Shown here: positions 1 through 44,725 of the stretch, one piece after another | How positions within the stretch are numbered: the stretch's first letter is position 1 | Layout of the letters: each line of letters begins with the position of its first letter | Assembly (NCBI GenBank): GCA_963835845.1 | Contig: CAWIGT010000006.1 | Span: 8,709-72,708 of the forward strand | Origin: an uncultured Chloroflexia bacterium | GTDB taxonomy: Bacteria; Chloroflexota; Limnocylindria; Limnocylindrales; CSP1-4 | DNA length: 64,000 nt | Reading direction: 5' to 3' | The notes under the pieces: generated by a model | Databases searched by the model: none | Told to the model about the DNA's origin: nothing | The model's input: the letters and a program-made list of their open reading frames with translations, nothing else | Made by a program: the position numbers and the translations under genes

Positions 1-2120
1 CGCCGACGAGGGCTACGCCCTGCATTCGGATCTCGAGGTCCGGGCGAGGCGCGTACTTCATGGCGAGCGACGCGGCGTCGAGGGCCAGGAGCCGGATGTT
101 GCGAGCCAGGATCTCGGCCCGGGTCGACGGCGGCAGAGCGGCCCAGATCTCTTCCGGATCGCGTCAGCGGCGTCGGCACGAAGACCGTGCCGCCGTCCAC
201 GAGCCCGGCAAGCGGATCGCCCTGCTTGAACGAGTTGGTGTCGAAGAGCGGCACGAAGTCGACTTCGGTCAGCTCGTTGTGGAGCCGGATCGGCTCCTCG
301 GCGATCGTCAGGAAGTAGGTCGTGGGCAGGCCCTTCTTCTCCGAGCCGTAGCGCGGATAGGCCTGGACGTACAGGTTGAACAGCTCGCCGACGGTCGTCG
401 CCACGAGCTTGTTCGTGGTGACGATGCCGAAGCCGCCGACCGAATGGCCGCGCAGGCTGTAGGCGCCCTTGGGGCGGATGTTCAACCCGTTGTTGGGGAG
501 GGCCAGCGGATGACGGATGCCAAGCACTGCTCGGCGCTGCTCCTTGACCGCCTTCTCGTCGGCCATCCAGTCGAAGACCGCGCCGAGGTCGCCCGGCTGG
601 ATGTCGCGAGAGCCGAGGCCGGCGGAGGCGGATACGACACGCGGCATAGGGGCGCCGTCCATGGCCGCGTCGGCCAGGGCGGACTTGAGCTCGCGGGTGA
701 GCGGGTTGTCGGCTGCCGCCGGCTCGTCCGTCCGCTCCACGACGGCCACGACCTTGGCGTTGCCAGCGCCTCCGCCAGCTGAGTCGGCCGGGAACGGGCG
801 GAAGCTGGTGACGGTGATGCAGCCGACCTTGCGGCCTTCGGCGCGGTACGCGTCGACGACTGCCAGCGCGGTGTCCGCCATCGTCCCCATCGAGACCATG
901 ACGTAGTCCGCATCTTCGTCTTGTAAGGAGTCGATCAGGCCGTAGTGGCGGCCGGTCAGGGCCTCCCACTCGGCCATTGCCCGCTCGACGATCTGCGGCA
1001 GGCGGTCGTACCAGGAGCGCTGGGCGATGCGGCCCTTCATGTACGCGTCCTGGTTCTGGACGACGCCGGACATCAGGGCGTCTTCCGTGTCGAACAGGTC
1101 ACGCACGGTCTTGCGCGGATCGCCGACGAATCGCCGGAGGAGGTCGTCCTCGGGCAGCTGGACGTTCTCGATGGTGTGGGTGGTGAGGAAGCCGTCCTGG
1201 GCCACGAACCAGGGCGTCTCGCCGTCTTCGGCGACACGTCGGGCGATCGCGGTGAGGTCTGCCGCTTCCTGGCAATTGCGGGCGAAGAACATGCCCCAGC
1301 CGCTGTCCGCGACGCCCATCATGTCGTCATGACCGGCGTGGATATTCAGGCTCTGACTGGTCAGGGCGCGCGCGCCGACGTGGAAGACGGCCGGAAGCCG
1401 CTTGCCGGCGATGACGTACAGGACTTCCTTCATCAGGATGAGGCCCTGTCCGGCGGTGAAGTTCGTGACTCGGCCGCCCGCCAGGGCGAAGCCTTCGGCG
1501 GCCGAGGCGGAGGAATGCTCCGACTCCGGCTCGACGAACTTCAGGGTTGTTCCCCAGAGGTTGGGGGTGCCGTTGGCCACGGCGACCTGGTAGACCGCCG
1601 CCATGGTCGTCGACGGCGTAATCGGATAGGCGCAGGCGCCGTCACTGATACGCGTCTCGACATAGGCGATGGCTTCCGAGCCGTCGATGATGGCCGGAAT
1701 GCCTGGAAATTCTGGAGTCGGGGTATTCGTCACGATGCTCGGTTCACTCAATGCACGCAGCTGGCGGGCCAGCGCGCTTCCGTCCAAGTGCTTGAGCAGG
1801 GTGCCGCCAATCCCGCTGGCGACTGCCTCGCGCTGCTCGTCTGCATGCCAGTAGGAAGCCAGCACGGCGATCCGACCCGCAGGGATCAGATCGCGCAGAG
1901 CAGCAACCATAGGCTTCCATCCCCCGGCGACATCGGCATCGAGCAGCACAACGTCGGGGCGAGCCGCGGCCGACTCACGCGCGGCAAATTCACACGACGC
2001 CTGAGCGACGATGAAACCATGACGCGAGAGGTGGTCGCAGAGAGCCTCGGTTGCGGCGCGGTGCTGACTGACAATGAGCAGTCGGCGCACGGGTTCCTGG
2101 GTATCAGCGAGCATGCTCAT
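1..2120 (-). CDS. Pyruvate:ferredoxin/flavodoxin oxidoreductase (homodimeric NifJ/YdbK-type PFOR). Only the N-terminal ~700 aa are present because the 3' end runs off the window. An in-frame N-terminal receiver domain precedes it, and there is an apparent 1-nt frameshift near 160-165.
   Basis: My own minus-strand translation; the ORF is absent from the track because it has no stop in the window. It reads PAIIDGSEAIAYVETRISDGACAYPITPSTTMAAVYQ, GQGLILMKEVLYVIAGKRLPAVFHVGARAL, VMVSMGTMADTALAVVDAYRAEGRKVGCITVTSFRPFP and GSEKKGLPTTYFLTIAEEPIRLH. After ...VFVPTPLT the conserved continuation DPEEIWAALPPSTRAEILARNIRLLALDAASLAMKYAPRPDLEIRMQGVALVG is in another frame. Confidence 0.85.
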   Translation of the reverse strand, partial: MSMLADTQEPVRRLLIVSQHRAATEALCDHLSRHGFIVAQASCEFAARESAAARPDVVLLDADVAGGWKPMVAALRDLIPAGRIAVLASYWHADEQREAVASGIGGTLLKHLDGSALARQLRALSEPSIVTNTPTPEFPGIPAIIDGSEAIAYVETRISDGACAYPITPSTTMAAVYQVAVANGTPNLWGTTLKFVEPESEHSSASAAEGFALAGGRVTNFTAGQGLILMKEVLYVIAGKRLPAVFHVGARALTSQSLNIHAGHDDMMGVADSGWGMFFARNCQEAADLTAIARRVAEDGETPWFVAQDGFLTTHTIENVQLPEDDLLRRFVGDPRKTVRDLFDTEDALMSGVVQNQDAYMKGRIAQRSWYDRLPQIVERAMAEWEALTGRHYGLIDSLQDEDADYVMVSMGTMADTALAVVDAYRAEGRKVGCITVTSFRPFPADSAGGGAGNAKVVAVVERTDEPAAADNPLTRELKSALADAAMDGAPMPRVVSASAGLGSRDIQPGDLGAVFDWMADEKAVKEQRRAVLGIRHPLALPNNGLNIRPKGAYSLRGHSVGGFGIVTTNKLVATTVGELFNLYVQAYPRYGSEKKGLPTTYFLTIAEEPIRLHNELTEVDFVPLFDTNSFKQGDPLAGLVDGGTVFVPTPLTRSGRDLGRSAAVDPGRDPGSQHPAPGPRRRVARHEVRASPGPRDPNAGRSPRR
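1760..2090 (-). other. Atypical CheY-like receiver (REC) domain, in frame with the PFOR body
   Basis: The translation reads VRRLLIVSQHRAATEALCDHLSRHGFIVAQASCEFAARESAAARPDVVLLDADVAGGWKPMVAALRDLIPAGRIAVLASYWHADEQREAVASGIGGTLLKHLDGSALARQLRAL. The phospho-acceptor Asp context (LLDAD), the Ser (VLAS) and the Lys (LLKH) are present. The N-terminal acidic pair is replaced by SQ. Confidence 0.6.
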
Positions 2121-2393
2121 AGGGTGCGCCCGAGGCTCCATCGCCCGTAGCGACAGGGCTCCCTAAGAGCGGGGGCCATATGGCCCGCGGAGGCACGGAA
2201 CCGTACGGGCGGCCACCGCTCCTTAGGGTGGGTATCGGCCGCCGGACGGGCGGCAGATATGGGGACTCGCGGCCCAGCGTCGGGGCCCTTGCGGCCCCCC
2301 GCCAAACCTGCTCCGGGCGGGGACGACATGCCCGCGGCGGAGGGCCATTCGGCACTGCGCAGGCGGCGTACATGCACGCAGACTTCTGTGCGT

Positions 2394-2720: not shown

Positions 2721-3020
2721 CGGCCGATATTGGGCGGGGTCGAGGCCGCAAACCCGCTTCCTCGGCTCGCCGGCCGATATTGGGCGGGGTCGAGGCCGCA
2801 AACCCGCTTCCTCGGCTCGCCGGCCGATATTGGGCGGGGTCGAGGCCGCAAACCCGCTTCCGCGGCTCGCCGGCCGATATTGGGCGGGGTCGAGGCCGCA
2901 AACCCGCTTCCTCGGCTCGCCGGCCGATATCGGGCGGGGTCGAGGCCGCAAACCCGCTTCCTCGGCTCGCCGGCCGATATTGGGCGGGGTCGAAGCCGCA
3001 AACCCGCTTCCTCGGCTCGC
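2721..3020. repeat. Tandem array of six 50-bp units with no spacers
   Basis: The unit cggccgatattgggcggggtcgaggccgcaaacccgcttcctcggctcgc starts at 2721, 2771, 2821, 2871, 2921 and 2971. There are only 3 substitutions in total, and a partial seventh unit follows at 3021. Confidence 0.97.
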
Positions 3021-3045
3021 CGGCCGCCGCCCGCCGCTCGCCAGC

Positions 3046-4338
3046 CTAGAGTTCGTGGTATTGCTTCGCGTAGGCCGTGAGCTCGTCGCGGAAATCGGGG
3101 TGGGCGATCGCGATCAGGCGCTTGGCGCGTTCGCGGAAGCTCTGACCGAACAGCTCGGCCACGCCGAATTCCGTGACTACAGTTCGGACGTGTGAACGAG
3201 TGGTCGTGACGCCTGCCCCTTCCCTGAGGCTGATCGTGATGCGGGAGAACTTGCCGTCGGCGGCCGTCGACGGCAGGGCGATGATGGCCCGCCCTTCCTC
3301 GGCGAGCGCCGCGCCGCGGATGAAGTCCATCTGCCCGCCCACGCCGCTGTACATGCGCCGGCCCGATCGAGTCGGCGCACACCTGGCCGGTCAGGTCGAC
3401 CTCGATGGCCGAGTTGATGGCGCACATGCGCCGGAAGCGGCGGATGACGGCCGTGTCGTTCGTGTAGTCGACCGGCGCATCTCGACCATCGGGTTGTCGT
3501 CGACGAAGTCGTAGAGCCGCTGCGTGCCCATCATGAAGGCGGCCACGATCTTGCCGCGGTCGAGCTCCTTGCGATCGCAGGTGACGACGCCCGCCTCGAC
3601 GAGGTCGACGAGCAGCGTCGGTGAACATCTCGGTGTGGATGCCGAGGTCCCGCTTGTCGCCGAGCGCAGGCGCCGACGGCGCTCGGGATGGCGCCGATGC
3701 CCATCTGGAGCGTGGCTCCGTCCGGGATGAGGTCGGCGACGTACTCGGCCGATGCGCCGCTCGATCTCGCCCGGCTCGCCGATCCTCGTAGGTCGTACGG
3801 CGGCCGGTCGACCTCGATCGCGAGATCGATCTCGCTCACGTGGAGGAAGCTGTTGCCCAGCGTCCGGGGCCATGCGCTTGTTGACCTGGGCGATGACCGA
3901 TCTTGGCGCGAGCGGACGGCCGTCAGCATGGCGTCGACGGACGGGCCCAGCGAGCAGAAGCCGTGCTCGTCGGGCGGGGTCACGTTGATGAACACGACGT
4001 CGAGCGGAATCAGGCCGCGAGTCGAACAGCTGCGGGATGTCCGAGAGGAAGACGGGGATGAACTCCGCTCGACCCTCGTTGACCGCCCTGCCGCGCGTTC
4101 GGGCCGATGAACAGCGCGCGATGCCGGAAATGCCCTTCCATCTCGGGCGCGAGGTGGGGTGCGGGCCCTCGGCGTGCATGTGGACGATCTTGACGTCGTC
4201 GAGCGGGTGCGCGCGCCACCAGCGCGTCGAGCAGCATCGATGGCGTGGCCGGCCGCGCCGTGCATGAAGATCTGCTGGCCGGACTGGATCCCGGAAACGG
4301 CTTCCGAGGTGTCACGAGCGCATGACCAGAGCCTGCAT
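3046..4338 (-). pseudogene. Acetyl-CoA hydrolase/transferase family gene (4-hydroxybutyrate CoA-transferase-like), with the conserved sequence scattered over all three frames
   Basis: Conserved blocks are found in different minus-strand frames: SEAVSGIQSGQQIFMHGAA / ATPSMLLDALVARAP / LDDVKIVHMHAEGP / APHLAPEMEGHFRHRALFIGPNARQ / AVNEGRAEFIPVFLSDIPQLFDSR / LIPLDVVFINVTPPDEHGFCSLGPSVDAMLTAVRS / VIAQVNKRM / PRTLGNSFLHVSEIDLAIEVDRPPYDL / AEYVADLIPDGATLQMGIGAIPSAV / LLVDLVEAGVVTCDRKELDRGKIVAAFMMGTQRLYDFVDDNPMVEM / PVDYTNDTAVIRRFRRMCAINSAIEVDLTGQVCADSIGP / MYSGVGGQMDFIRGAALAEEGRAIIALPST...IAHPDFRDELTAYAKQYHEL. Confidence 0.8.
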
Positions 4339-4449: not shown

Positions 4450-5109
4450 TCATGCCGGTGGCGGGCCACGAACGCGGCGGCCTGCGGCGCGGCGCTCGAG
4501 GTTCAGCTTGGAGAGGATGGAGCTGACGTAGTTCTTGACCGTCTTGTCGGACAGGAAGACCTCGGAGGCGATCTCCTTGTTCGTCTTGCCCTCGGCGACG
4601 AGCAGCAGGATCTTCTGCTCCTGCTGGGTCAGCTGCGCCATCTCGTCCGTGTACGTGCCGGTGGCGATGCGGCGGACGCGGTCGAGGACCTTCTCGGTCA
4701 CCGCCGGGTCGAGCAGCGACTCACCGCGGCCGACCGACTCGAGCGCCGCGACGAGATCGCGGCCGCGGATCTGCTTGAGCAGGTAACCGCAGGCGCCGGC
4801 GACGATCGCCGAGAGGACCGCTTCCTCGTCGGGGTAGCTGGTCAGGATCACGACCCGCGTGGCGGGGAATTCGGCGCGGATCTCGCGACAGGCCTCGATG
4901 CCCGAGCCGTCGGGCAGGCGAACGTCCATGACGACGAGGTCGGGCTCGAACTTGCGAGCCATCTCGATGGCCTCCGCCGCGGTGCCCGCCTCGGCGACGA
5001 CCTGGAAGTGCTCGCGTCGCTCGAGCAGCGACACGAGGCCCTGGCGGACGACCTCATGGTCGTCGACCACGAGAAGCCGCAAGGGGCGAGCCTCGATCTG
5101 GTCGGTCAT
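4450..5109 (-). CDS. NarL/LuxR-family response regulator (DevR/DosR-like), intact
   Basis: MTDQIEARPLRLLVVDDHEVVRQGL...LVVMDVRLPDGSGIEACREIR...LTQQEQKILLLVAEGKTNKEIASEVFLSDKTVKNYVSSILSKLNL. This is the C-terminal part of the chimeric track ORF 4450..6330. Confidence 0.9.
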   Translation of the reverse strand: MTDQIEARPLRLLVVDDHEVVRQGLVSLLERREHFQVVAEAGTAAEAIEMARKFEPDLVVMDVRLPDGSGIEACREIRAEFPATRVVILTSYPDEEAVLSAIVAGACGYLLKQIRGRDLVAALESVGRGESLLDPAVTEKVLDRVRRIATGTYTDEMAQLTQQEQKILLLVAEGKTNKEIASEVFLSDKTVKNYVSSILSKLNLERRAAGRRVRGPPPA

Positions 5110-6686
5110 GGTCTCCTCGTTCGGCGACGCCGCTGGATACTTCGCGGCGAGGCACTTCCACGATGATACGCGTGCCGAGCGCCAGGCCCGCTCTGGACCT
5201 CCAGTCGGCTCCCGACAGACGAAGCTCGGGCGCGCATGTTGCCCAGGCCCTGGTGGCCCGATGCCGCGCGGTTTGTGCGGGTCGAAGCCCACTCCGTTGT
5301 CGCTGATGATGAGCTTGATCCCGCCATCGTCGGTCTCGACGTGGACGCTGCCGCGAGTGGCCCTGGAGTGGCGGGCGACGTTGCTGAGCGCCTCGCGTGC
5401 GATTGCAGCAGCTGGCCGATCAGCTCGGGCGAGCAGGTCGGAGTCCCGGGCGTTGGACGCGTCGAGATCGACGTCGATCATGCTGTTGACTCGGAACTCG
5501 TCGGCGAGGGCGGCGAGCGCCGCCGACGAGGCCGGCCTGCTCGAGCAGCTCGGGCCGGAGCCCGAAGATGAAGTTGCGGATGTCGCGGATCGACAGGTTG
5601 AGCGAGTCGATGGCGCGCTCGACTCGGGCGCGAGCCTCCGTCGGGCTCTTCCGCCATCAGCTCCGGCACGTCCTCGAGCGACAGGCCGACGGCGTAGATG
5701 CTCTGGATGATGCCGTCGTGCAGGTCGCGGCCGATCCGCTCGCGCTCCTCGACGATGGCCAGCCGCTGGACCTGCTCGTGCAGCCGGGCGTTCTCGATGG
5801 CGATGCCCGGCATGCAGCGCGAACATCTCGACCAGTCGCTCGTCGTCCTCGGTGAAGTCGCCAGAGGGCAGCTTGTTGGTCAGGTAGAGTCGGCCGATCG
5901 ACCGGCCCTTCGCGCCGATCGGCACGCCCAGCAGCGAGTGCATCGGCCGGGTGGTTCGGCGGGAAGCCGAAGCGTCGCGGGTCCGTCGCGATGTCATGGT
6001 ACTCGGAGAGGTCGAGCTTCTCGGGCGATGACGCCCAGCAGACCGTGGCCGTGCGGCATGGGCCCGATCCGCTCGCGCTCCGCGCGGCTGATTCCGCTCG
6101 TGATGAACCGCTCGATGCCGAAGTCCTGATCGACGATACCCAGCGCCGCGTACTGCGCGTGGGCAAGCTCGCGGACGCGATCGGTGATCAGCTGGAGGAC
6201 GCGGTCCAGGTCCAGAACGCCGGCGATGCCACGCGTGGCGGTGTCCATCGCCGCGAGCTCGTCGGTGGCCTGTCCGGCACGGGCGCGGGACCAGGCGGAG
6301 CCGATCACGATCTCCAGACCGCGGGCACATTCGTCGACCGAGAAGACGGCCGCGGGCGGGGCATCCAGCTGCAGCGTGGCGAGGACTCGATCGCCGAAAC
6401 GCAACTCGTACGTTCGGAGGCCGGCCGTCTCGGCCCCGGGATCGAGCAGGCGGCCGCTGCGCAATTCCACCTCGTCGAGGGGTGCTGCGTAGAGGTGGAG
6501 GTGGCCGCCGCCCAATCCGGAACTGGATACGACCCTCTCGAACGCCTCGTTCAGCAGCTGGTGGGTGTCGGGCCCCGGCCCGCCGCGCCAGGCTTCGAGC
6601 GCCGCCGACATCTCCCTCAACCCGAGCAGGCCGGTAGTGTCGGGGCCCTCCCGGCTGCTGTTCGGCGTTGAATGAGTTGCGCTCAT
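5110..6686 (-). pseudogene. GAF-domain sensor histidine kinase (DevS/DosT-like, HisKA_3 type) with multiple frame switches
   Basis: The GAF part (DLDRVLQLITDRVRELAHAQYAALGIVDQDFGIERFITSGISRAERERIGPMPHGHGLLGVI) is in one frame. The rest follows in other frames: PEKLDLSEYHDIATDPRRFGFPPNHP, PMHSLLGVPIGAKGRSIGRLYLTNKLPSGDFTEDDERLVEMFALHAG, IAIENARLHEQVQRLAIVEERERIGRDLHDGIIQSIYAVGLSLEDVPELMAEEP, LAALADEFRVNSMIDV...IAREALSNVARHS...IISDNGVGFDP and HQGLGNMRARASSVGSRLEVQSGPG. Confidence 0.8.
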
Positions 6687-6968
6687 CTTTCGGAGACTAG
6701 CAGGCTGCCCGTCCGAGCGTTGGGGCCCACCCGGTCGTTGCGACGCGCTACGGCCCACGGCCTCGCCCGAATCCCCAAATCAGCGAGGGGCGCGGGGCCG
6801 GCTGGTGTCGGGGCGCCGCCGCCCGTTCGGCAGCTCGGGTTCGACTCAGGACGCCGTTGGGCCCGCCGGAACGGGCCGGAGGTCCCTTGGCCCTCCACCC
6901 GGCCGCGCCCACCCTTGCCCAACACGAAGACCGGCAGCATTCCAGCCTATCGGCCGGATGGACGGGTT

Positions 6969-7412
6969 ATGTCCCACCTCGAGACGATATTGCTTGCGAC
7001 CGACGGTTCTGCTGCGTCGGAGCACGCCAGCGAAGAGGCCATCGACCTCGCCACCCAGGTCGAGGCTCGCCTGCTCGTGGTCAGCGTTCTGAGCAATTCC
7101 GCTCGCCCCACCGAAGCATCCGCCGACGGGCTGGCCGACTCGCGCGACTCCCTGACGAGCAAGGCCCAGGCGATCGTGCAGCGGGCCAAGGCAGCCGGCG
7201 CCAACGCCACCTTCCTGGTGTGGGAGGGCGAGCCCGGCGAGGCGATTGTCGCTGCCGCCGATTCTGAGAACGCGGATCTGATCGTCGTCGGCTCGCACGG
7301 CCGCAGCGGCGTCAGCCGTTTCCTCATCGGCAGCGTCTCGGACTTCGTCGTGCGCCACGCCCACTGCCCCGTCATGGTGGTCCGCGGCAAGCTCGAGGTC
7401 GCCCGGCGCTAG
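6969..7412 (+). CDS. Universal stress protein (UspA family)
   Basis: MSHLETILLATDGSAASEHASEEAIDLA...DLIVVGSHGRSGVSRFLIGSVSDFVVRHAHCPVMVVR. The start is internal to track ORF 6672..7412. Confidence 0.9.
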   Translation: MSHLETILLATDGSAASEHASEEAIDLATQVEARLLVVSVLSNSARPTEASADGLADSRDSLTSKAQAIVQRAKAAGANATFLVWEGEPGEAIVAAADSENADLIVVGSHGRSGVSRFLIGSVSDFVVRHAHCPVMVVRGKLEVARR

Positions 7413-11800: not shown

Positions 11801-13376
11801 TCAGTCGACGAAGGTTTGGGACTGCTCGCGCATGAATTGCTGCAGATAGTGCATGCCGCCGGAGGCCTTGCCCGTGGTTCCGGAGCCCTTCCAGCCGCCG
11901 AAGGGCTGGATGCCCGGCCAGGCTCCCGTCGTAGCACCCGCCCGGCGGTTGATGTAGATGACGCCCGCTTCGATCGCCTCTTCGAATCGATCGATCTCTT
12001 CGTGGTCGTCGCTGAAGAAGCCCGCGGTCAGGCCGTAGATCGTGTCATTGGCGCGTTCGATGGCCTCGTCGAGGGTGTCGAATGGGGCCACGGCAACGAG
12101 CGGCACGAACAATTCGTCACGCCAGATGCGATGGTCGGCCGGCAGGTCCGCCACGATCGTCGGCGCGGCGTATAGATCCGTGCCCTGGCCGGCCAGCAAC
12201 TCCCCGCCGATCACGACGCGGCCGTCTCGCCTGGCCTCGGCGATGGCTTCAACGTACTTGGCCTTCGCCTTGGCGTTGACGAGCGGGCCGAGCCATACCT
12301 TTCGATCCGTCGGGTCGCCGACGGTGATGCCCCGGGTCTTGGCGACCAGCGCTTCGAGGAACGCCTCGTACACGGGGCGCTGGACGAAGACCCGGCTGCA
12401 GGCCGAGCACTTCTGGCCGCCGTATCCGAAAGCAGAGCGCATCACGCCTTCGGCCGCCTCTTCGAGGTCTGCCCGAGCGCTGACGATGGCCGGGTTCTTG
12501 CCACCCATTTCGACCACGACCGGCTTTGGGAACTTCTTGCTGAAGGTCTTGAAAACGCCGTTGTAGCCGATCTCATAGGAACCAGTGAAAAGCAGCCCGT
12601 CGACGCCTTCGTTCTCCTGCAGCTCCGCGCCGACGGTGGCGCCGGGCCCGCTGACCATGTTGAAAACGCCATGCGGCAAGCCGGCCAGATCCGCGATCTC
12701 GGCCAGCTTCACGCCACAGAGCGGAGCATCGCTCGACGGCTTGTAGACGACGCTGTTGCCGGCGACGAGCGCGCCGCCCGACGGCCCGCCGGAGAGGGCC
12801 ATCGGGAAGTTGAAGGGGCTGATCACGGCCCAGACGCCATGCGGCTTGAGAACGGATCGGGTGTGGACGGTGGTGTCGCCCAGGTTGCCCATCGGGTGGT
12901 CGAAGCCATCGTTGGCCTGGAGTTGATCGCAGTAGTAGCGAATCAGGTCGGCCGAATTCCTCGACGTCGCCCAGCGACTCCAGCCGGTTCTTGCCGACTT
13001 CGATGGCCATGAGCGCGGCCAGCTCCATCTGTCGCTCGCTGATCAGATCCGCCATGCGGCGCATGATCGCGATCCGCTCCAGCCAGGGAGTCCTCGCCCA
13101 ACCCGGAGCCGCGGCGCGGGCGGCGGCCACGGCGTCCCGAACGTCATCACGCGTGCCTGCCGCGAACATGCCGACGAGCGAGCCGTCGATGGGCGAGCGC
13201 TTCTCGAAAGTCTCCTTGCCGGGACGCCACTGGCCGTCGATGAAGAGACCGTGCGTACCACCGAGCTCGGCGCGGGCCAGGGCCAGACCGGCGTCGTAGT
13301 TGGCGTGCAGCTGCTCGTTGTCGTTGCGCAACGTGGCGTAGGTGATCTTGAGCCGGGGCTCAGACGTCGCGGTCAT
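11801..13376 (-). CDS. NAD-dependent aldehyde dehydrogenase (1-pyrroline-5-carboxylate / glutamate-semialdehyde dehydrogenase-like) with a single apparent 1-nt insertion near 12955
   Basis: Track ORFs 12573..13376 and 11801..12892 are two frames of one protein. ...IEVGKNRLESLGDVEE continues in the other frame as SADLIRYYCDQLQANDGFDHPMGNLGDTT...VISPFNFPMALS...FTGSYEIG...EMGGKNPAIV...GYGGQKCSACSR. The span is 1576 nt (3n+1). Confidence 0.85.
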
Positions 13377-13712
13377 CCGAACACCCTCCTGGGGTTACAC
13401 CGTTGTTGGGGCCGCACCGCCCCGAGCCGCGCGCTCGTAGCTGGGCGCAGCCTCTGTTGGCCGTAGTCTACTGCGACGCCGGTCCGAGGCCGCAGTCCAG
13501 GAGTCCGGCCGAGGCCAGCCAAACGGCGCCGAGGTCGCGCGAGCAGGCCGGCCCGCCGACTCGGTCCTGCCAGATGTTCACCCTGGGGACGCAACGGGCG
13601 ATCCAGGTCGGCTTCGGACGTACTTCCCTGTCAAATGGCCACCAGGCCTGGATGGAATATGGAAGTTGGCCAAATCCAGACCCGCCAAGGGTGGACAAGG
13701 TCCACCGGGTGC

Positions 13713-13956
13713 ACGTCCGTCAGGTTACCGGGCGGTCCAAGTCGTCGGGCGGGGCCACGCGGTTACCGGGCGGGCCACGCGGTCAGCGGCGCGGGCCACG
13801 CGGTTACCAGGGCCGGCCACGTGGTCAGGGGCGTGGGCCACGTGATTACCGGGCGGGCCACGTGGTCAGGGCGCCGGCCACGTGGTCAGGGCGCCGGCCA
13901 CGTGGTCAGGGCGCCGGCCACGTGGTCAGGGGCGCGGGCCACATAGTCGGGCGGCG
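13713..13956. repeat. Tandem array of 20-21-bp units (about 10 clean and 2 degenerate copies) built around CCACGTGG
   Basis: Three identical units ggccacgtggtcagggcgcc lie at 13856, 13876 and 13896. They are flanked by variants (ggccacgcggttaccgggcg, ggccacgtgattaccgggcg and so on). Confidence 0.95.
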
Positions 13957-13978
13957 CTGGAGAAGGCCTCGACCCGCT

Positions 13979-14872
13979 CTACCCGACGAGCGCCGCCACG
14001 ATCTCGACGATGGACGGGGCAACGGCATCCGGAGCCCGGCCGCCGCGTTCCGCCGCGACGCGGGCCAGTTCGGCGTCGCCGTGCTTACCGGACCTGACGA
14101 AGACGCCGCGCAAGCCCGCCTTCTGGGCCCCGCGGATGTCATTCCAGAGGTCGTCGCCAACCATGGCGATGTCGCGTGGCTGAAGCTTCGCCACTCGGCC
14201 GTCACGAGACCCGAGCATCCGAATCGCCTCGCCGAAGAAGGTTCGCGACGGCTTGCCCGTGACCAGGGCACGCCGCTCCGTGGCGAACTCCAGCGCGGCG
14301 ACATACGCGCCGGAATCGACCGTGACCCCGGCCGGCGTCAGCCACCAGCGGTTCTTGTGCATGGCCACGAATTGGGCGCCGCCGCGTATCAGGCCGAACG
14401 CCGACTGGATGTTCCTGGGCGTGAACTCGTCCCCGGCATCGCCGACTATGACCGCGCCGGCAGTGGCAACGGGCTCGGCAGCCCGCTCGTGCGAGAGCAG
14501 CGGCAGCCCGTCGAACTCCACCAACGCGTCGGGCGCCACCATCACGTACAGCGGCGTGGCGGGTTGGAGGCGCCTCGCCCAGGCGGCCGCCGCCGAAACG
14601 GCACTGACGATCCGGTCCGGCGCCACCGACAACCCGCCCCGCGCAAGCCGGCCCGACAGAGTGGCGCGGCTCACCAGGGATACGTTTGTGCCGATCACAT
14701 ATGGAATCCCGCGAGCGTCGAGCGTCGCCAGGGCCTCGATGGCGCCGGGCAGGACCGCGTCCCTGAGCACCAGCACGCCGTCCAGGTCCAGGACCAGGCC
14801 ACGGACGCCAGCGAGCCGGTGGCGCAGGTGGGCGAGCTCGCCGGCGGTTCGGGAGGCGGTCGCGTCGTTCAT
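13979..14872 (-). CDS. HAD-superfamily hydrolase, subfamily IIA (NagD-like)
   Basis: LVLDLDGVLVL..., PYVIGTNVS, LVTGKPS, IAMVGDDLWNDIRGAQKAGLRGVFVRSG. The start MNDATASR is at 14872. Confidence 0.85.
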   Translation of the reverse strand: MNDATASRTAGELAHLRHRLAGVRGLVLDLDGVLVLRDAVLPGAIEALATLDARGIPYVIGTNVSLVSRATLSGRLARGGLSVAPDRIVSAVSAAAAWARRLQPATPLYVMVAPDALVEFDGLPLLSHERAAEPVATAGAVIVGDAGDEFTPRNIQSAFGLIRGGAQFVAMHKNRWWLTPAGVTVDSGAYVAALEFATERRALVTGKPSRTFFGEAIRMLGSRDGRVAKLQPRDIAMVGDDLWNDIRGAQKAGLRGVFVRSGKHGDAELARVAAERGGRAPDAVAPSIVEIVAALVG

Positions 14873-15091
14873 CCGCGGATCGTCGCACACTCGGGTGGGG
14901 GCGGGCCTGCCTCGAAGGACCGTTCTCCCCTGCCCGTCCGACGGCACGACGACCGCCACCCCCGGCAAGGTATAGTTCGCGCCGAACCGCGCCAGCGTCC
15001 CAGTGGTTCCGCGCCCTCCCGGAGGCGACCAACCCGGGCAAGCCATGACAGACATCCGCGCGGCCTCGCCGGGCGGTCTCCGGAGACTTGG

Positions 15092-15997
15092 ATGACCGAA
15101 TCCAGACCGATCCACAGCGTGGTCCTGGTCAAGCAGGTGCCCGACACCCACAACCTCACGGGCGAGGTGATGACCAAGGACGGCACCATGAACCGCGGTG
15201 CCCTGCCGGCCATCTTCAACCCGGAGGATCTGAACGCTCTCGAGATGGCGCTGGAGATCAAAGGGCGCTTCGGCGGCACCGTGACCGTCATCACCATGGG
15301 CCCGCCCAAGGCCGCGAACATCCTGCGGGAGTCGCTGTTCCGCGGCGCCGACAAGGTCGTGCTGCTGACGGACCGCAAGTTCGCCGGCGCGGACACGCTG
15401 GCCACGTCCAACGTCCTGCGGCTCGCCGTGGAGAAGGTCGGCCAGTACGACCTCGTGCTGTGCGGCCGCCAGGCCATCGACGGCGACACCGCCCAGGTCG
15501 GACCGCAGACGGCGGAGAAACTCGGCATTCCGCAGATCACCTACGCCGAGTCGGTCATCGACGTCGCGGATGGCAAGGTCACCGCCCAGCGAGCGCTCGA
15601 CACCGGCTCCGAGATCGTCCGCTGCATCATTCCGTGCCTGCTCACCGTGGTCGGCTCAGCCAACACGCCGCGCCCCGCCTCGGTTCGGCGCCAGATGCAG
15701 CGCAAGTTGTCGGCCGCACCGGGGGAATACGCGGCGCTGCGCAAGCAGTGGCCGGAATTCGAGACCGATGAGCAGCTCGACGCCTACCTCGTCAAGCACG
15801 ATCTCAAGATCCCCGTCTGGACGGCCGAGGACATCGGCGCCGCGGAGGGCAGCATCGGGCTGGCGGGCTCTCCCACACAGGTCCACAAGGTCAACTTCGT
15901 GGTCCTGGAGAGCGCCGAGAGCAAGACCATCTCGCCCACGCCCGAGGCAATCGCCGCGATGGTGGCCGAGCTCGTCCACGAATACATCGTCGGGTAG
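15092..15997 (+). CDS. etfB: Electron transfer flavoprotein beta subunit, FixA/bifurcating-type
   Basis: MTESRPIHSVVLVKQVPDTHNL..., LVLCGRQAIDGDTAQVGPQTAEKLGIPQITYA, GLAGSPTQVHKV. A GGAG lies upstream of the ATG at 15092. Confidence 0.92.
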   Translation: MTESRPIHSVVLVKQVPDTHNLTGEVMTKDGTMNRGALPAIFNPEDLNALEMALEIKGRFGGTVTVITMGPPKAANILRESLFRGADKVVLLTDRKFAGADTLATSNVLRLAVEKVGQYDLVLCGRQAIDGDTAQVGPQTAEKLGIPQITYAESVIDVADGKVTAQRALDTGSEIVRCIIPCLLTVVGSANTPRPASVRRQMQRKLSAAPGEYAALRKQWPEFETDEQLDAYLVKHDLKIPVWTAEDIGAAEGSIGLAGSPTQVHKVNFVVLESAESKTISPTPEAIAAMVAELVHEYIVG

Positions 15998-16004
15998 GCG
16001 CGAG

Positions 16005-17072
16005 ATGAGTGAGCAGAAGCAAATCTGGGTATTCATCGAGCACACTGACGGCGTCATCGCCGATGTCAGCCTGGAGCTGACCGGCAAGGCTCGCGAACTG
16101 GGCGACCGGCTGGGCCACGAAGTGGTCGGGCTGCTGTGCGGCCAGGGCGTCGACGATCTGGCGGAGCAGGTCATCCGCCACGGCGCGGATCGCGTGCTGC
16201 TGGCGGATCACGAACAGCTGGCGCTGTACCGCACGCTCCCCTACGCCAGAGTCGCGATCACCGAGGCGCGCAAGCATCTGCCCGAGATCTTCCTGATCGG
16301 CGGCACACCGAACGGCCGAGACTTCGCGCCGCGAGTCGCCAGCGCCCTGCGTTGCGGACTGACTGCCGACTGCACGGACCTCCAGATCGGCGACTACTAC
16401 GTGAAGAAGGAAGACAAGACCTACAAGGACTTGCTCTATCAGATCCGGCCCGCCTTCGGCGGCAACCTGATCGCCACGATCGTCAACCCGAACACGCGGC
16501 CCCAGATGGCCACGGTTCGAGAAGGCGTCATGCGCAAGCCGGCCGCCGACGCCGCCCGCCAGGGTGTCGTCGAGAAGGTCGTCCCGGTCTTCGAGCCGGG
16601 AGACTTCGCGCTGGAGATCCTGAGCCGCCAGGTTCGCAAGTCGACCGTCAAGCTCAAGGACGCTCCGGTCATCGTGGCCGGCGGCGCGGGCGTCGACGGG
16701 GCCGAGGAGTTCGCCCTGCTGCGAGACCTCGCCAACCTGCTCGGCGGCGAAGTCGGGGCGAGTCGCGCGGCCGTCGACGCGGGCTACATCGATCGAGCTC
16801 ATCAGGTCGGCCAGACCGGCACGACCGTTCGGCCGCGGCTCTACATCGCGGCCGGAATCTCCGGCGCCATCCAGCACCGGGCCGGCATGGACCAGTCGAG
16901 CAAGATCATCGCCATCAACACGGATCCCAACGCGCCAATGTTCCAGATCGCCCACTACCGCATCGTCGGCGACGTCGGCGAAGTGCTGCCAATGATCATC
17001 AAGACCTTGCGTGAGCGAGCTCTCGGCGAGCCTGAACCCGCCAAGCCGATGGACCAGCGAGATGCCGAATGA
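16005..17072 (+). CDS. etfA: Electron transfer flavoprotein alpha subunit
   Basis: MSEQKQIWVFIEHTDG..., VIVAGGAGV, GASRAAVDAGYIDRAHQVGQTGTTVRPRLYIAAGISGAIQHRAGMDQSSKIIAINTDPNAPMFQIAHY. Confidence 0.92.
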   Translation: MSEQKQIWVFIEHTDGVIADVSLELTGKARELGDRLGHEVVGLLCGQGVDDLAEQVIRHGADRVLLADHEQLALYRTLPYARVAITEARKHLPEIFLIGGTPNGRDFAPRVASALRCGLTADCTDLQIGDYYVKKEDKTYKDLLYQIRPAFGGNLIATIVNPNTRPQMATVREGVMRKPAADAARQGVVEKVVPVFEPGDFALEILSRQVRKSTVKLKDAPVIVAGGAGVDGAEEFALLRDLANLLGGEVGASRAAVDAGYIDRAHQVGQTGTTVRPRLYIAAGISGAIQHRAGMDQSSKIIAINTDPNAPMFQIAHYRIVGDVGEVLPMIIKTLRERALGEPEPAKPMDQRDAE

Positions 17073-18787
17073 GCGAGAACTTCTTCTTCGACAACCCGGA
17101 CCTGCAGTTCCGACTCGAGCAGCTCGACCTCCACGAGGTGCTGGAGTTCAAGGAAAAGGGCTACTCGGAATCCGAGTTGTACCCGGGTTCGCCCCGCAAC
17201 TACCCCGACGCCAAGGACAACTACCGCATCGTCCTGGACGTCCTGGGTGAGATCTGCGGCGAGCGGATTTCGCCTCGCGCGGCCGAGGCCGACGAAGAGG
17301 GCGCGCATTTCGAAGACGGCAAGGTCACGTACGCCGCGGCCACGCTGGACGCGATCGAGGCGCTCCGCTCGGCGGAGCTGTTCGGGGCGATGCTGCCGCG
17401 CGAGTTCGGCGGCCTGAACCTGCCCGAGTCCATCTACCAGATGATGGTCGAAGTGGTGGCCCGGGCGGAGAGCGGTTTGATGACCGTGTACGGGCTGCAG
17501 GAAATCGCCTCGATGATCGACGAGTACGGCGATCCCGAGACCAAGGCCCGCGTCCTGCCGAAGTTCGCCCGCGGCGAGGTCTCCGGGGCGATGGTCCTGA
17601 CCGAGGCCGACGCCGGGTCTGATCTGGGCGCCGTGGCAACCAGGGCCACTCTGGACGAAGCCACGGGCCAGTGGCATCTCAACGGCGTGAAGCGCTTCAT
17701 CACCAACGGCCTGGCCGACGTTTCGGTCGTTCTGGCCCGCAGCGAGGAAGGCTCCACGGACGCGCGCGGCCTGTCGATGTTCCTGGTGGAGAAGGACGAC
17801 ACCGTCAAGATCCGCCGCATCGAAAACAAGATGGGCATACACGCTTCGCCGACGTGCGAGATCCAGTACAACAACACGCCGTGCATCCTGATCGGCAAGC
17901 GCCGCTTCGGGTTGATGCGCTACTCGATGAACCTCATGAACGGGGCCCGGCTGGCGGTCGCGGCGCAGGCCCTCGGCATCGCGGAGGCGGCCTACCGCGA
18001 GGCCGACGACTATTCGAAGGAACGCATCCAGTTCGGCAGGCCGATCCGGTCACTGCCGGCGGTCGGCCGTCTGCTGCTGGGCATGAAGGTCGACCTCGAA
18101 GCCACGCGCGCGCTCCTGGCCGAGACTTCGCGTTGGGTGGACCTCTGGAAGGTCTACGAAAAGGCGATCGGCGACGGCACCGCTCCCGACGAGGCGGCCG
18201 CTCGAGCCCGCCACAAGCAGTGCCAGACCCTGGCCGAAACACTCACTCCGATGGTCAAGTACTGCTCCACCGAAATGGGCAACCGCGTCTGCTACCAGTC
18301 GATGCAGGTCCACGGCGGAGTCGGCTACATGCGCGAGTTCAACATCGAGCGGCTCTTCCGCGACGTTCGAATCACGAACATCTACGAAGGCACGAGCCAG
18401 CTGCAGGTCGTCGCGGCCATCGGCAAGCTGCTGAACCGCTCGCTCGATCCGCTCCTGGCGGAGTGGGCCGCGGCCTCGTACCCGGACGACATGGCGGCCG
18501 AGCGGGCCACCCTCGGCGACCTGACGGCCACCTTCCAGCATGCCGTCGACGCGTTGAAGGCTCAGCCCGAGCGCGACAAGGTCGACTACTACGCCTGCGA
18601 CCTGGTCGATTGCGCGGTCTGGCTCGTCAACTCGTGGCTGCTGCTCCGCGACACGAACCTTCTCGAGTCGAAGAAGTCGGTCGCCCGCGCCTACATCGCC
18701 TCCATCGCGCCGCGGCTCCGCGCCACGGCCGAGGTGGTCGTTGGGGCAAACGCGGTTCCGCTGGCGGCCATCGGCTCGCTCCTGTAG
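17069..18787 (+). CDS. Long-form acyl-CoA dehydrogenase (572 aa)
   Basis: GAMVLTEADAGSDLGA, NGVKRFITNG, IENKMGIHASPTCEIQYNN, QVHGGVGYMREFNIERLFRDVRITNIYEGTSQLQ. An ATGA overlap couples it to etfA. Confidence 0.9.
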   Translation: MSENFFFDNPDLQFRLEQLDLHEVLEFKEKGYSESELYPGSPRNYPDAKDNYRIVLDVLGEICGERISPRAAEADEEGAHFEDGKVTYAAATLDAIEALRSAELFGAMLPREFGGLNLPESIYQMMVEVVARAESGLMTVYGLQEIASMIDEYGDPETKARVLPKFARGEVSGAMVLTEADAGSDLGAVATRATLDEATGQWHLNGVKRFITNGLADVSVVLARSEEGSTDARGLSMFLVEKDDTVKIRRIENKMGIHASPTCEIQYNNTPCILIGKRRFGLMRYSMNLMNGARLAVAAQALGIAEAAYREADDYSKERIQFGRPIRSLPAVGRLLLGMKVDLEATRALLAETSRWVDLWKVYEKAIGDGTAPDEAAARARHKQCQTLAETLTPMVKYCSTEMGNRVCYQSMQVHGGVGYMREFNIERLFRDVRITNIYEGTSQLQVVAAIGKLLNRSLDPLLAEWAAASYPDDMAAERATLGDLTATFQHAVDALKAQPERDKVDYYACDLVDCAVWLVNSWLLLRDTNLLESKKSVARAYIASIAPRLRATAEVVVGANAVPLAAIGSLL

Positions 18788-39142: not shown

Positions 39143-40412
39143 TCAGTGCTTCAGGTTCACGAGTTCCTGGAGCATCTCGTCGGAGGTGGTGATGACGCGG
39201 CTGTTGGCCTGGAAGCCACGTTCGGCCGTGATCATCCCCGTGAACTGCGTCGCCAGGTCCACGTTCGACATCTCGAGCGCGCCCGTCGTCACCGTTCCGC
39301 GTCCGCCCGTCCCTGCGGCGCCGATGTTGGCGCCGCCGGACGCGGAGGTAGCAGAGAAGTTGTTCTGGCCGGCCCGAAGGAGACCGGCAGAGTTGAGGAA
39401 ATTCGCGAGTGCGATCTGGCCCAGAACCTGCGTCTGGCCGTTGCTGTATACGCCGGAGAGGAGGCCCGCGTCGCCGACCGCGAAGGTGACCAGCGTACCG
39501 GAGGTGAAGCCGTCGGTCTGGCCGGCGGGCTGGCTGGTGCCGCTGAACTGGGTCATCTGGGTCAGATCGATCTTTGGCGTCGTCGACGTAGCGCCGTCCG
39601 GGAAGGTGAAGGCCAGGGTGCCCGTGGAGGCCGAGAAGACGCCGCCGCTTGTGTAGGTGAGCGTGCCGTTGTTGACTCCGGCCGCGGACCCGTCGATGGC
39701 GATGCCGCTGTCGCCCGCATCCTTGGTGGCAGCCCAGGACCACGTGTTTGCGGCCGTCTTGGTGAAGGTCACCTTGACCGAGTGGGAGACGCCCAGGCTG
39801 TCGAATACGGTCATGGTCGTGGGCACGGTGGTCGCGGGCACGGCGGGAGGGCCGACAACGGCGGCGGTCGCGCCGGCGTCGAGGTTGCCGCTGAGGGTCA
39901 CGTTCGAAGTCGCCAGAGCGGTGGTGCGCTGACCGATCGGGATGGTCAGGTTGGTGATCGGCTGGGTGATGTCGATCTTGCCGGCCGAGTCTGCCTGCCA
40001 GCCCTGGACTTTGAGGCCGCTGGCCGGGTTAGCCAGCGATCCGTCGATGGCGATGTCGAACGCGCCATCGCGCGTATAGGTCGTGGCGGATCCGTCGGAC
40101 TCGATGAAGAAGCCGTCGCCCTGAATGGCCATGTCGGTCGTCTTGCCGGTCGATTGAAGGTTGCCCTGGGTCTGAAGGACGTCGATGCCGGCGACCGTCA
40201 TGCCGAGGCCGATCTGGGCGGGGTTGATGCTGCCGAGCCCGCCCTGAGGTGCGGTCGCACCGTGGACGGTCTGGGAAAGGATGTCCTGGAAGTTGACGCG
40301 GCCGGCCTTGAACCCAACCGTGTTGACGTTGGCGATGTTGTTGCCGATAACGTCAAGCATGGTCTGGTGGCCGCTGCAGACCGGAGATCGCTGAGAACAT
40401 AGAGCGGAGCAT
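39143..40412 (-). CDS. flgE: Flagellar hook protein FlgE, with an apparent 1-nt insertion at codon 13-14 (about 40369-40373)
   Basis: GGGAGG lies 7 nt upstream of the ATG at 40412. MLRSMFSAISGLQ then shifts frame to (H)QTMLDVIGNNIANVNTVGFKAGRVNFQD...MSNVDLATQFTGMITAERGFQANSRVITTSDEMLQELVNLKH. The span is 1270 nt (3n+1). Confidence 0.9.
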
Positions 40413-40600
40413 CGAATGCCTCCCGAGAGTTGCTGACGTCAGCGCCTCGCGGCGCGACGGATTGTTGGCTTCCGCGGCCAGGTCAGCTTCCTCAGAGAGG
40501 TCCGGCAGTGAACCTGGCACATGCAGCGGAATTCGATTCGACTGGCGCGTTCCGGCTCCCGCCAGAACCGCCGACGCAATTGGCCGGCGCAGCCGGGCGA

Positions 40601-41051
40601 TTACGCGATTACCACACCATCGATTCTGCGTAAAGACGCGCTCCTTGTTCTGGTCCGGCTCGACGGCCGTTACGACCGTGTGACTGGGTGCGTGGACGAC
40701 GTAGGCGTACTGGTCGAGCATCACCAGGGACTGGCCCGTGCTGCCACGCTGGCTGAGGGTGTCCATGGCCTTGCTCAGGCGATCCATCTGGTCTGGCGCC
40801 ATCGGGATCTGACGCTGCTCGACGCGCTTGAGGGCATGCTCCGAGAACTGGAGCGAATGCTCGTCGGCGGCTGCCGACAGCGCATCTCGGAAGGACAGGC
40901 TACCGTCCGACGGCGGCGCTCCCGAGGTGGGCTGGCCGAGCGGGCTCGAGCCGGGCGTCAGGCTTGGGTCCCGGACGAGACCTGCCTGGACTGCCGGGTC
41001 GGGTCCTATTCGATCGATCGTAGCGATCACCTCCTTGGTGCTGTACGGCAC
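40601..41051 (-). CDS. Flagellar operon protein of the TIGR02530 type (found between flgD and flgE), with an apparent 1-nt frameshift near 40630
   Basis: LQFSEHALKRVEQRQIPMAPDQMDRLSKAMDTLSQRGSTGQSLVMLDQYAYVVHAPSHTVVTAVEPDQNKERVFT. The expected ending RIDGVVIA-stop is in the next frame, with TAA at 40601-40603. As given, the frame instead runs on into the flgE start. Confidence 0.7.
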
Positions 41052-41063
41052 TCGGCCGTGTTG

Positions 41064-41561: not shown

Positions 41562-41574
41562 CGCAGTACTCCTG

Positions 41575-44723: not shown

Positions 44724-44725
44724 TG

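Follow-up and report, generated by a model that had tools for sequence, protein, structure and literature searches.

A receiver-derived domain fused to the alpha-gamma subunit of a split 2-oxoacid:ferredoxin oxidoreductase in uncultured Limnocylindrales

What might a receiver domain be doing on the large subunit of a central metabolic enzyme? Pyruvate:ferredoxin oxidoreductase (PFOR) is the point of passage from glycolysis to low-potential electron carriers, and the control known for it is either transcriptional or exerted through oxygen sensitivity. The question is raised by a stretch of 64,000 nucleotides from an uncultured Chloroflexia bacterium (GenBank assembly GCA_963835845.1, contig CAWIGT010000006.1, positions 8,709 to 72,708), hereafter the window. 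At its left edge, a minus-strand gene reads from a receiver-like domain straight into PFOR domains, close to a DevS/DevR-type two-component pair. A preliminary description of this DNA had drawn attention to the arrangement and proposed that it could place the enzyme under direct phosphorelay or dimerisation control. The comparison with related genomes given below establishes the fusion, and shows a receiver part that is conserved as strictly as the enzyme. The residues of this part point to a pseudo-receiver, which probably no longer works as a phosphorylated switch.

An in-frame fusion shared by related genomes

On the minus strand of the window the frame is open from 2120/2114 and runs from MSMLADTQEPVRRLLIVSQH to LRALSEPSIVTNTPTPEFPGIPAIIDGSEAIAYVETRISDGACAYPITPSTTM without any stop. 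The two ATG codons named in the preliminary description fare differently: that at 2114 (MLAD...) is conserved, whereas relatives often have ATA, TAC or some other codon unfit for initiation at 2120.

The distribution of the fusion was examined by a scan of one genome per species, which found the receiver in 46 Chloroflexota metagenome-assembled genomes labelled Limnocylindrales or Limnocylindria. They were recovered from peat, fen and soil, with the Stordalen fen, SPRUCE and Danish soils among the sources, and are independent assemblies of Illumina and Nanopore data. In 41 of the 46 species genomes the receiver is in frame with PFOR, so that the stop-free reading seen in the window is borne out. 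Thirty of these fusions are full-length, with a stop at 772–785 aa; in the remaining 11, contig ends or frameshifts further downstream interrupt the open reading frame (ORF). Over the region, nucleotide identity is 82–88%, with synonymous differences flanking the junction. A search with the whole ORF adds more than 85 full-length database proteins of 772–792 aa that span the entire query, including the receiver; their public annotation is just ‘2-oxoacid:acceptor oxidoreductase family protein’ or ‘pyruvate-ferredoxin/flavodoxin oxidoreductase’. The receiver–PFOR fusion is thus real, as it is intact in most of these 41 related Limnocylindrales species genomes.

An error of assembly or frame in an indel-rich window, or of gene calling, could in principle have merged two genes. 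The many frameshifts of the window fit such an artefact, as does the receiver-only protein search, which at first returned nothing but short receiver proteins of 90–235 aa. The genome loci and the full-ORF search trace that impression of stand-alone or truncated genes to short-contig sampling together with a few true stand-alone genes. Identical in-frame junctions in 41 species genomes and the window, the synonymous differences around them and the full-length fused proteins deposited from many sources leave an artefact with a negligible probability, and it is rejected.

The window itself adds one more species, which shares 88% nucleotide identity with the nearest of the related genomes. It is rich in indels, and the genes that are split here have intact orthologs in relatives. 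Compared with those, the PFOR gene of the window loses its frame at ~161 and carries a compensated double shift at ~775–800; the acetyl-CoA hydrolase gene spans three frames and the kinase gene two, the C-terminus of the regulator is shifted, and an aldehyde dehydrogenase gene (11801–13376) is split over two frames. Assembly errors are the likely cause, the alternative being real pseudogenisation.

The enzyme part is not the single-chain PFOR that had been assumed at first. Its body aligns with residues 7–514 of the single-chain enzymes 7plm, 1b0p and 6cin at ~30% identity (Foldseek E 3e-30). The NCBIfam model for single-chain PFOR, TIGR02176, scores 335.6 bits against a cut-off of 911 and is matched at model positions 3–511 only, and the orthologs stop at 772–792 aa and not at ~1200. 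The ORF is the alpha-gamma subunit (domains I–III) of a split pyruvate/2-oxoacid:ferredoxin oxidoreductase. In relatives, a CBS-pair gene (131–140 aa) comes next, its start overlapping the alpha-gamma stop, followed by a delta-beta gene (551–571 aa) with two [4Fe-4S] motifs and a thiamine-diphosphate domain (Fer4 and TPP_enzyme_C, i.e. domains V/VI as a separate gene). For the window, these two genes are placed outside its edge. Pyruvate is the presumed substrate, judging from the closest relatives, which are PFORs, and from the adjacent acetyl-CoA hydrolase/transferase gene. The motifs YPITPST and VGARA are present; their Thr and Arg correspond to Thr31 and Arg114, which bind pyruvate in the enzyme of Desulfovibrio africanus.

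Sister genomes also preserve states before and after the fusion. In nearly every locus long enough to display it, the cluster order is the same: GAF-HisKA_3 kinase, NarL-type regulator, acetyl-CoA hydrolase/transferase, receiver(-alpha-gamma), CBS, delta-beta. At locus L048, in an outgroup genome, stands the closest unfused ortholog (76% identity); the cluster is the same there, with a stand-alone receiver gene of 148 aa, a spacer of 204 bp and then the alpha-gamma gene; more distant orthologs comprise alpha-gamma and CBS genes, with no receiver. An alignment with unfused orthologs identifies the linker as what was once the N-terminal tail of the PFOR subunit; its confidence in the AlphaFold model is low (predicted local distance difference test, pLDDT, <50 at residues 126–131). 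The receiver began as a separate single-domain gene of NarL/DevR lineage directly upstream of the PFOR gene, and in one Limnocylindrales subclade the loss of its stop codon and of the intergenic spacer joined it to the PFOR N-terminal tail.

Losses appear to have followed. In locus L038 (6001–6716), the receiver stops, owing to a deletion of 1 nt, at a TGA that overlaps the junction GTG, and PFOR residues ~129–682 are deleted; this locus is a natural intermediate of fission and decay. Seven further loci keep the receiver, with or without a CBS gene, and have no adjacent PFOR of this type: in L044, L053 and L054 PFOR is lost and the receiver stands at the same place in the cluster, and in L042, L045, L051 and L052 only the CBS gene remains. 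With L038 as the intermediate, these loci look like secondary deletions. A mobile element was seen at one fused locus, L056, where a gene for an IS1595-family transposase (1530–2540) lies between the acetyl-CoA hydrolase and receiver–PFOR genes.

A receiver fold with a reduced catalytic set

The preliminary description had recognised a receiver module without its acidic pair. This is upheld, and the fold belongs to the NarL/DevR lineage. A profile of the domain matches Mycobacterium tuberculosis DevR (3c3w) over the whole domain with E 3e-7; this is the best natural match in the PDB, and all PDB matches of the profile are response regulators. The AlphaFold model has a beta1-alpha1 to beta5-alpha5 fold at residues 10–123 with pLDDT ~85, and Foldseek superimposes the receiver part on the receivers of KdpE, RstA, BfmR and PhoB with template-modelling scores of 0.82–0.86 and root-mean-square deviations of 1.9–2.6 Å. 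With the receiver of the DevR-like regulator next to it, the domain shares 31% identity. A scan with hidden Markov models finds the PFOR domains and Response_reg (PF00072) on one polypeptide, although the latter stays below threshold on the window copy (23.6 bits against a gathering score of 30.2, profile positions 2–109 of 111); several orthologs have a precomputed PF00072 match.

What distinguishes the domain is its catalytic pocket. Of the residues said at first to be kept, the acceptor Asp (D59) and the Lys (K108) are indeed present, and both are invariant across the fused clade. The Thr position, by contrast, is Ala (A86): the LTSY of DevR aligns with LASY here, and the Ser is the residue after the Thr (T+1), as in the NarL-family motif LTSY. 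The two Mg2+ ligands of the acidic pair are replaced by S16 and Q17, and the region reads SQH, at times STH or THH, across the fused clade. The aromatic switch residue three positions before the Lys is replaced by T105. In the wider receiver family, DD, ADD, SDH, SDR and similar combinations occur at the acidic pair, and the change from Thr to Ala is family-wide. As defined by Bourret and colleagues (PMC12632262), a pseudo-receiver is a recognised receiver without at least one of the DD, D, T and K residues, and many such domains dimerise without phosphorylation. By this definition the present domain, in which both DD residues and the T are gone, is classed from its residues as a pseudo-receiver. 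It retains the acceptor Asp and the Lys of a phosphorylatable receiver and lacks the acidic pair and the Thr; as D59 is present, it does not belong to the aspartate-less receivers.

The receiver family is small. Among 1.84 billion representatives, 304 matched at E <=0.001 and 17 at E <=1e-10, and the closest ones listed are stand-alone proteins of 127–254 aa plus a few fragments. No fused protein is listed in this exhaustive representative search, presumably because clustering at 50% identity places fused and unfused PFOR subunits together. Two proteins were peculiar. The apparent giant fusion P0161 (1526 aa) is a low-complexity false match and was discarded. P0021 (135 aa, from a 2-kb metagenome contig) takes its first ~48 residues from a canonical, DD-containing NarL-type receiver, the remainder being nearly identical to this pseudo-receiver family (cf. 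P0015); it is a recombinant or an assembly chimera.

A flavodoxin-like electron carrier in place of a receiver, which would suit the related CheY-like and flavodoxin folds and the role of flavodoxin as a PFOR partner, was dropped as exceedingly improbable, since the Pfam and NCBIfam scans contain no flavodoxin family, the sequence profile matches response regulators only, the fold matches are receiver domains, and no loop motif for binding flavin mononucleotide is visible in the sequence.

Selection on the domain was estimated from the 30 full-length fused genes, which also underlie the other divergence and entropy figures below. The ratio of nonsynonymous to synonymous divergence (dN/dS) is 0.145 in the N-terminal part of the receiver, 0.067 in its C-terminal part, 0.144 in the linker and 0.126 in the PFOR body. 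Purifying selection on the receiver matches in strength that on the enzyme, and this dN/dS implies a translated and constrained domain; since the receiver lacks its own stop codon, its translation must run on into PFOR. Alpha1 and the stretch from beta4 to alpha5 have the lowest amino-acid entropy.

Possible roles of the attached domain

The region upstream of the gene contains two conserved boxes of the form GGGCC-N4-GGCCC, which are the only such sites in 64 kb at <=1 mismatch, against 0.15 expected. The boxes vary in the divergent loci L055 and L056, yet their dyad symmetry stays; in the unfused locus L048, the receiver gene and the PFOR gene each have a box of this type upstream. The dyad GGGCCATATGGCCC resembles the DosR box, GGGACTWWAGTCCC, and the recognition helix of the neighbouring regulator, KTVKNYVS, is identical to that of DosR, where the contact residues of DosR lie. 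The regulator is DevR-like over its full length, and the GAF domain of the kinase is closest to GAF-A of DosT and DevS (E 5e-29 to 1e-27). The preliminary description had placed a GAF kinase, a NarL regulator and a universal stress protein 2–5 kb away; they are confirmed as a DevS/DevR-type pair and a gene for such a protein.

These observations suggest a reading, to which a probability of about one half is given, that joins transcriptional hypoxic or redox control with a pseudo-receiver serving as an interaction or assembly module rather than as a phospho-switch. Oxygen or redox input would reach the operon mainly by transcription, through binding of the DevR-like regulator to the two boxes. 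The kinase would no longer phosphorylate the pseudo-receiver in the canonical way. The latter would act independently of phosphorylation, serving the obligately dimeric enzyme as a module for interaction or assembly, and its conserved alpha1 and alpha4-beta5-alpha5 faces would contact the kinase, the CBS protein or a second receiver. The stand-alone ancestor, on a Rosetta-stone argument, would already have bound the PFOR subunit. A Shine-Dalgarno-like motif and a GTG at the junction may in addition yield a receiver-less subunit, so that a complex could contain both the long form and the short one.

Several points weigh against this combination. The presumed incompetence for phosphorylation is deduced from the replaced residues, and the strictly kept Asp and Lys might signify residual chemistry. 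The AlphaFold model carries no inter-domain confidence and thus lends no support to docking of the receiver on PFOR. Conservation of amino acids in alpha4-alpha5 partly coincides with a constraint at the nucleotide level. The receiver persists in seven PFOR-less loci and must therefore have, or have had, a PFOR-independent role. Finally, when two mismatches are allowed, the box is found 27 times in the whole window against 20.7 expected, which is not significant.

The best-placed further explanation complements the preferred one and does not exclude it. It holds that the gene has two products, the long fusion and a receiver-less alpha-gamma subunit initiated at the junction GTG; the short form may be the main catalytic one, and the long form a minor regulatory isoform. 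This is put forward tentatively, as a serious though minority prospect. Its basis is a 27-nt junction, GCATTGAGTGAACCGNCCATCGTGACG, which is synonymously invariant in all fused genes examined, including the divergent clade of L055 and L056 (75–77% protein identity). Rare codons are fixed in it (GCA, TTG and AGT make up 7%, 6% and 5% of their codon families), and the synonymous entropy of the 9-codon junction window is 0.085, where the mean of the gene is 0.43. All 41 in-frame junctions examined have the GTG codon, as have all 30 genes of the entropy analysis. The junction motif, GAGTGAACC followed by GTG, resembles the Shine-Dalgarno motif of the delta-beta gene (TTGAGGTGATCCG-ATG (GAGGTGATCC), compared with TTGAGTGAACCG-N7-GTG at the junction), and the junction Val lies within two codons of Met1 of unfused orthologs (MTTTN vs VTN). 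A retained internal start is plausible on these two grounds, and the 1-nt deletion in L038, which creates a TGA overlapping the GTG, fits as well. A PFOR subunit started at this GTG is a live possibility beside the fusion protein and not a refutation of it. The tryptic peptide that spans the junction is ALSEPTIVTNTPTPEFPGIPAIIDGSEAIAYVETR or variants of it.

Against two products, the Shine-Dalgarno core lies ~13 nt from the GTG, which is a long spacing; the start is predicted from the letters of the gene; and GTG makes up 30% of Val codons in the gene family anyway. The junction is, moreover, part of a longer stretch of suppressed synonymous divergence, 1731–1856, in which 14 of the 15 lowest 9-codon windows (of 724) fall and where synonymous divergence is 2.5–3 times lower than in the rest. 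This stretch is conserved at the nucleotide level also in stand-alone receiver genes without PFOR downstream, and therefore some other constraint must be at work. RNA structure gives no signal as its cause (z-score 0.76, and no Rfam family), and no match to a sigma-70-type promoter consensus, internal or upstream, was found in 1600–2700. An antisense ORF of 61 aa (1669–1854, plus strand) overlaps the stretch.

Another explanation, considered rather unlikely, places the real job of the receiver inside the two-component pathway, where it might for instance bind or modulate the DevS-like kinase without being phosphorylated. Its attachment to PFOR would in that case be a nearly neutral product of chance fusion between neighbouring genes, or a tether that reports the state of PFOR to the kinase. 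It would account for the receiver gene at the same place in the cluster where PFOR is lost or only the CBS gene is left, and the conserved alpha1 and beta5-alpha5 are the surface by which receivers generally dock to kinases (PMC12632262). Against a near-neutral accident, 41 species keep the frame across the junction, and purifying selection acts on the linker; had the fusion been neutral, breaks should be commoner. The PFOR-less loci, too, resemble secondary deletions, as L038 illustrates.

Further down the scale stands the view favoured in the preliminary description, namely that the receiver is a working phospho-switch, in which a DevS-like kinase or acetyl phosphate acts on D59 and toggles PFOR activity or dimerisation. 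Some features do speak for it: neither D59 nor K108 varies, the cluster includes a HisKA_3 kinase and a NarL-type regulator at nearly every locus, which fits a layout of one kinase with two receivers, and DevR is the closest solved natural relative of the domain. Direct phosphorelay is nonetheless improbable, because three of five catalytic positions (both of the DD pair, and the T) and the aromatic switch residue are replaced. The substituted states are fixed across the fused clade. CheY mutants in the acidic pair are severely defective in phosphorylation, which likewise counts against a switch. Loss of one residue of the five already defines a pseudo-receiver (PMC12632262).

A broader variant, held to be doubtful, is that the receiver physically couples the fermentative enzyme to the DevS-type oxygen or redox kinase. 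The kinase, by still acting on the Asp/Lys pocket or by mere binding to the domain, would gate PFOR after translation, or the pseudo-receiver would report the metabolic state back to it, and an internally initiated short isoform would set the regulated fraction. If this were true, a two-component-type module would act directly on central carbon and electron flow, not on transcription.

Known systems and the wider neighbourhood

In agreement with the preliminary description, which knew of no characterised PFOR with an N-terminal receiver, the literature search found no paper on a receiver fused to PFOR or a related oxidoreductase; independent fusions in other phyla were not searched for. Searches for PFOR with a CBS domain or with DosR, and a search within the Limnocylindria genomics paper, returned nothing relevant. 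Receiver–enzyme fusions and pseudo-receivers are each known; what is new is a pseudo-receiver on the subunit of a core metabolic oxidoreductase, with pre-fusion and post-loss states in sister genomes.

Like the bacterial pseudo-receivers (PMC12632262), the domain has a PF00072-type (beta-alpha)5 fold from which some of the five catalytic residues are gone; it derives from an ordinary response-regulator family (NarL/DevR), and phosphorylation-free action via alpha1/alpha4-beta5-alpha5 would be expected. It differs from known ones in that its ‘output’ is a thiamine-diphosphate/iron-sulfur oxidoreductase subunit, and not a DNA-binding, cyclic-di-GMP or kinase module. Pseudo-receivers and atypical regulators include FrzS, NblR, ChxR, GlnR and the central pseudo-receiver of ShkA.

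A second group of relatives consists of receiver–enzyme fusions, namely CheB (methylesterase), PleD/WspR (GGDEF), RpfG (HD-GYP) and PorX (PglZ phosphodiesterase). An N-terminal receiver, a flexible linker, a catalytic domain and a nearby histidine kinase are shared with them. These proteins keep DD, D, T and K and are phosphorylated, and they are signalling enzymes; here, the catalytic pocket is degenerate and the enzyme belongs to core carbon and energy metabolism.

Among solved PFORs (D. africanus 1b0p/7plm, Moorella thermoacetica 6cin and Methanosarcina acetivorans PorABDG 9bt4), domains I–III align to the single-chain enzymes, from which the present one differs by its division into alpha-gamma (~640 aa plus receiver) and delta-beta (~555 aa) with a CBS-pair gene between; none of these structures has an N-terminal receiver. 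The two-component part resembles DevS(DosS)/DosT–DevR(DosR) of M. tuberculosis in its DevR-like regulator, its kinase with a GAF domain closest to the haem GAF-A of DosT and DevS, HisKA_3 and HATPase, and its adjacent universal stress protein. It differs in the Chloroflexota host, in the extra pseudo-receiver and in a target operon of PFOR and acetyl-CoA hydrolase/transferase. Haem and DNA binding are putative here.

The locus matters in several respects. A selected receiver-type domain on the large PFOR subunit is a natural Rosetta-stone case, and suggests that modules derived from two-component systems may bind metabolic enzymes. It also provides a clean evolutionary series that starts with the canonical DD receiver, passes through partly degenerate stand-alone forms to the SQ form on PFOR, and ends where the enzyme is secondarily lost; the origin and function of pseudo-receivers are largely unknown (PMC12632262). 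The hosts are abundant uncultured Chloroflexota of peat and soil, in which a fermentation switch under waterlogging is relevant to peat carbon cycling. The features of the locus are collected in Table 1.

Table 1. Coordinates of features at the receiver–PFOR locus, in window positions.
Feature	Position	Strand	Basis or remark
Receiver–PFOR alpha-gamma ORF	1..2114	minus	Start ATG 2114; window edge cuts the ORF ~75 codons before the stop
Pseudo-receiver domain (by residues), aa 1–125	1740..2114	minus	Pfam, DevR profile alignment, AlphaFold, Foldseek, dN/dS
S16, Q17 in place of DD pair (DevR D8, D9)	2069-2064	minus	Alignment to DevR
D59, phospho-acceptor position kept (DevR D54)	1940-1938	minus	Alignment to DevR; invariant
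A86 in place of Thr (DevR T82)	1859-1857	minus	Alignment to DevR
T105 in place of aromatic switch residue (K minus 3)			Alignment to DevR
K108, Lys kept	1793-1791	minus	Alignment to DevR; invariant
Suppressed synonymous divergence, 3' third of receiver plus junction	1731..1856	minus	dS 0.25 vs 0.61–0.71 elsewhere
Junction element GCA TTG AGT GAA CCG AGC ATC GTG ACG (GCA TTG AGT/GGT GAA CCG ACC ATC GTG ACG over the fused genes)	1728..1754	minus	Invariant at synonymous sites
In-frame GTG, candidate internal start for receiver-less alpha-gamma	1733-1731	minus	Junction element
Linker SIVTNTPTPEFPG	1701..1739	minus	Alignment with unfused orthologs
PFOR domain I (POR_N)	975..1643	minus	Pfam 1.3e-56; PDB 7plm, 1b0p E 7e-76
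PFOR domain II (PFOR_II)	588..911	minus	Pfam 4e-18
PFOR domain III (POR, gamma-like)	1..437	minus	Pfam 2.3e-15; other frame below ~161
Conserved 22-nt block TTAGGGAGCCCTGTCGCTACGG between box and start	2145..2166	minus	Candidate core promoter or leader
Perfect palindrome GGGCCATATGGCCC	2173..2186	.	Centre 65 nt upstream of ATG; candidate DevR-type operator; invariant in alignment of 34 sequences
Second box, GTGCCGAATGGCCC on gene strand	2342..2355	.	Upstream alignment of 34 sequences
Acetyl-CoA hydrolase/transferase gene	3049..4307	minus	Three frames in window; order kept in relatives
DevR/NarL-type response regulator	4450..5109	minus	Best PDB match DevR 3c3w, E 6e-59, full length; C-terminus frameshifted
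Sensor kinase, GAF-GAF-HisKA_3-HATPase, DevS/DosT-like	5108..6734	minus	Two frames in window
Universal stress protein	6990..7412	plus	E 1.7e-35; divergent from kinase gene

The CBS-pair gene stands between the PFOR subunit genes in fused and unfused orthologs alike (L012 8349–8744, L016 5888–6283, L048 7998–8420) and is found also in L051 (7426–7821); L039 and L040 are without it. Loss of the PFOR genes in L042, L045, L051 and L052 has left the receiver and CBS genes side by side and overlapping. This conserved position suggests that the CBS protein may be a second regulatory subunit, possibly one that senses adenosine-type ligands. Several relatives have, near the cluster and on the opposite strand, a second, unrelated 2-oxoacid:ferredoxin oxidoreductase of three subunits (alpha, beta and gamma; L051 7832–10498, L055 12065–14355, L056 10262–11224).

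A 50-bp tandem repeat (CGGCCGATATTGGGCGGGGTCGAGGCCGCAAACCCGCTTCCTCGGCTCGC) of 6.1 copies with 98% matches (2721–3026) separates the end of the acetyl-CoA hydrolase gene from the promoter region of the receiver–PFOR gene. A hairpin at 2394–2427 has a 12-bp stem, GACGAACGCCGG-gcgtcccct-CCGGCGTTCGTC, followed by a T-run to ~2433 on the plus strand, and occurs once in the window. Stem and loop hardly vary across the 34 aligned upstream sequences and are identical in L055 and L056, and no Rfam family matches. The hairpin reads as a putative intrinsic terminator on the strand opposite the operon, an A-run preceding it on the gene strand. Two degenerate dyads (ACGCCGTTGGGCCC and GGGCCGGAGGTCCC) at 6851–6886, between the kinase and universal stress protein genes, may be chance matches.

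Elsewhere, the regions 13403–18787 and 39143–48628 encode the beta and alpha subunits of an electron-transfer flavoprotein and an acyl-CoA dehydrogenase, as well as a flagellar FlgE hook protein and a FliI-type ATPase. A further NarL-type regulator is encoded at ~54406–54711.

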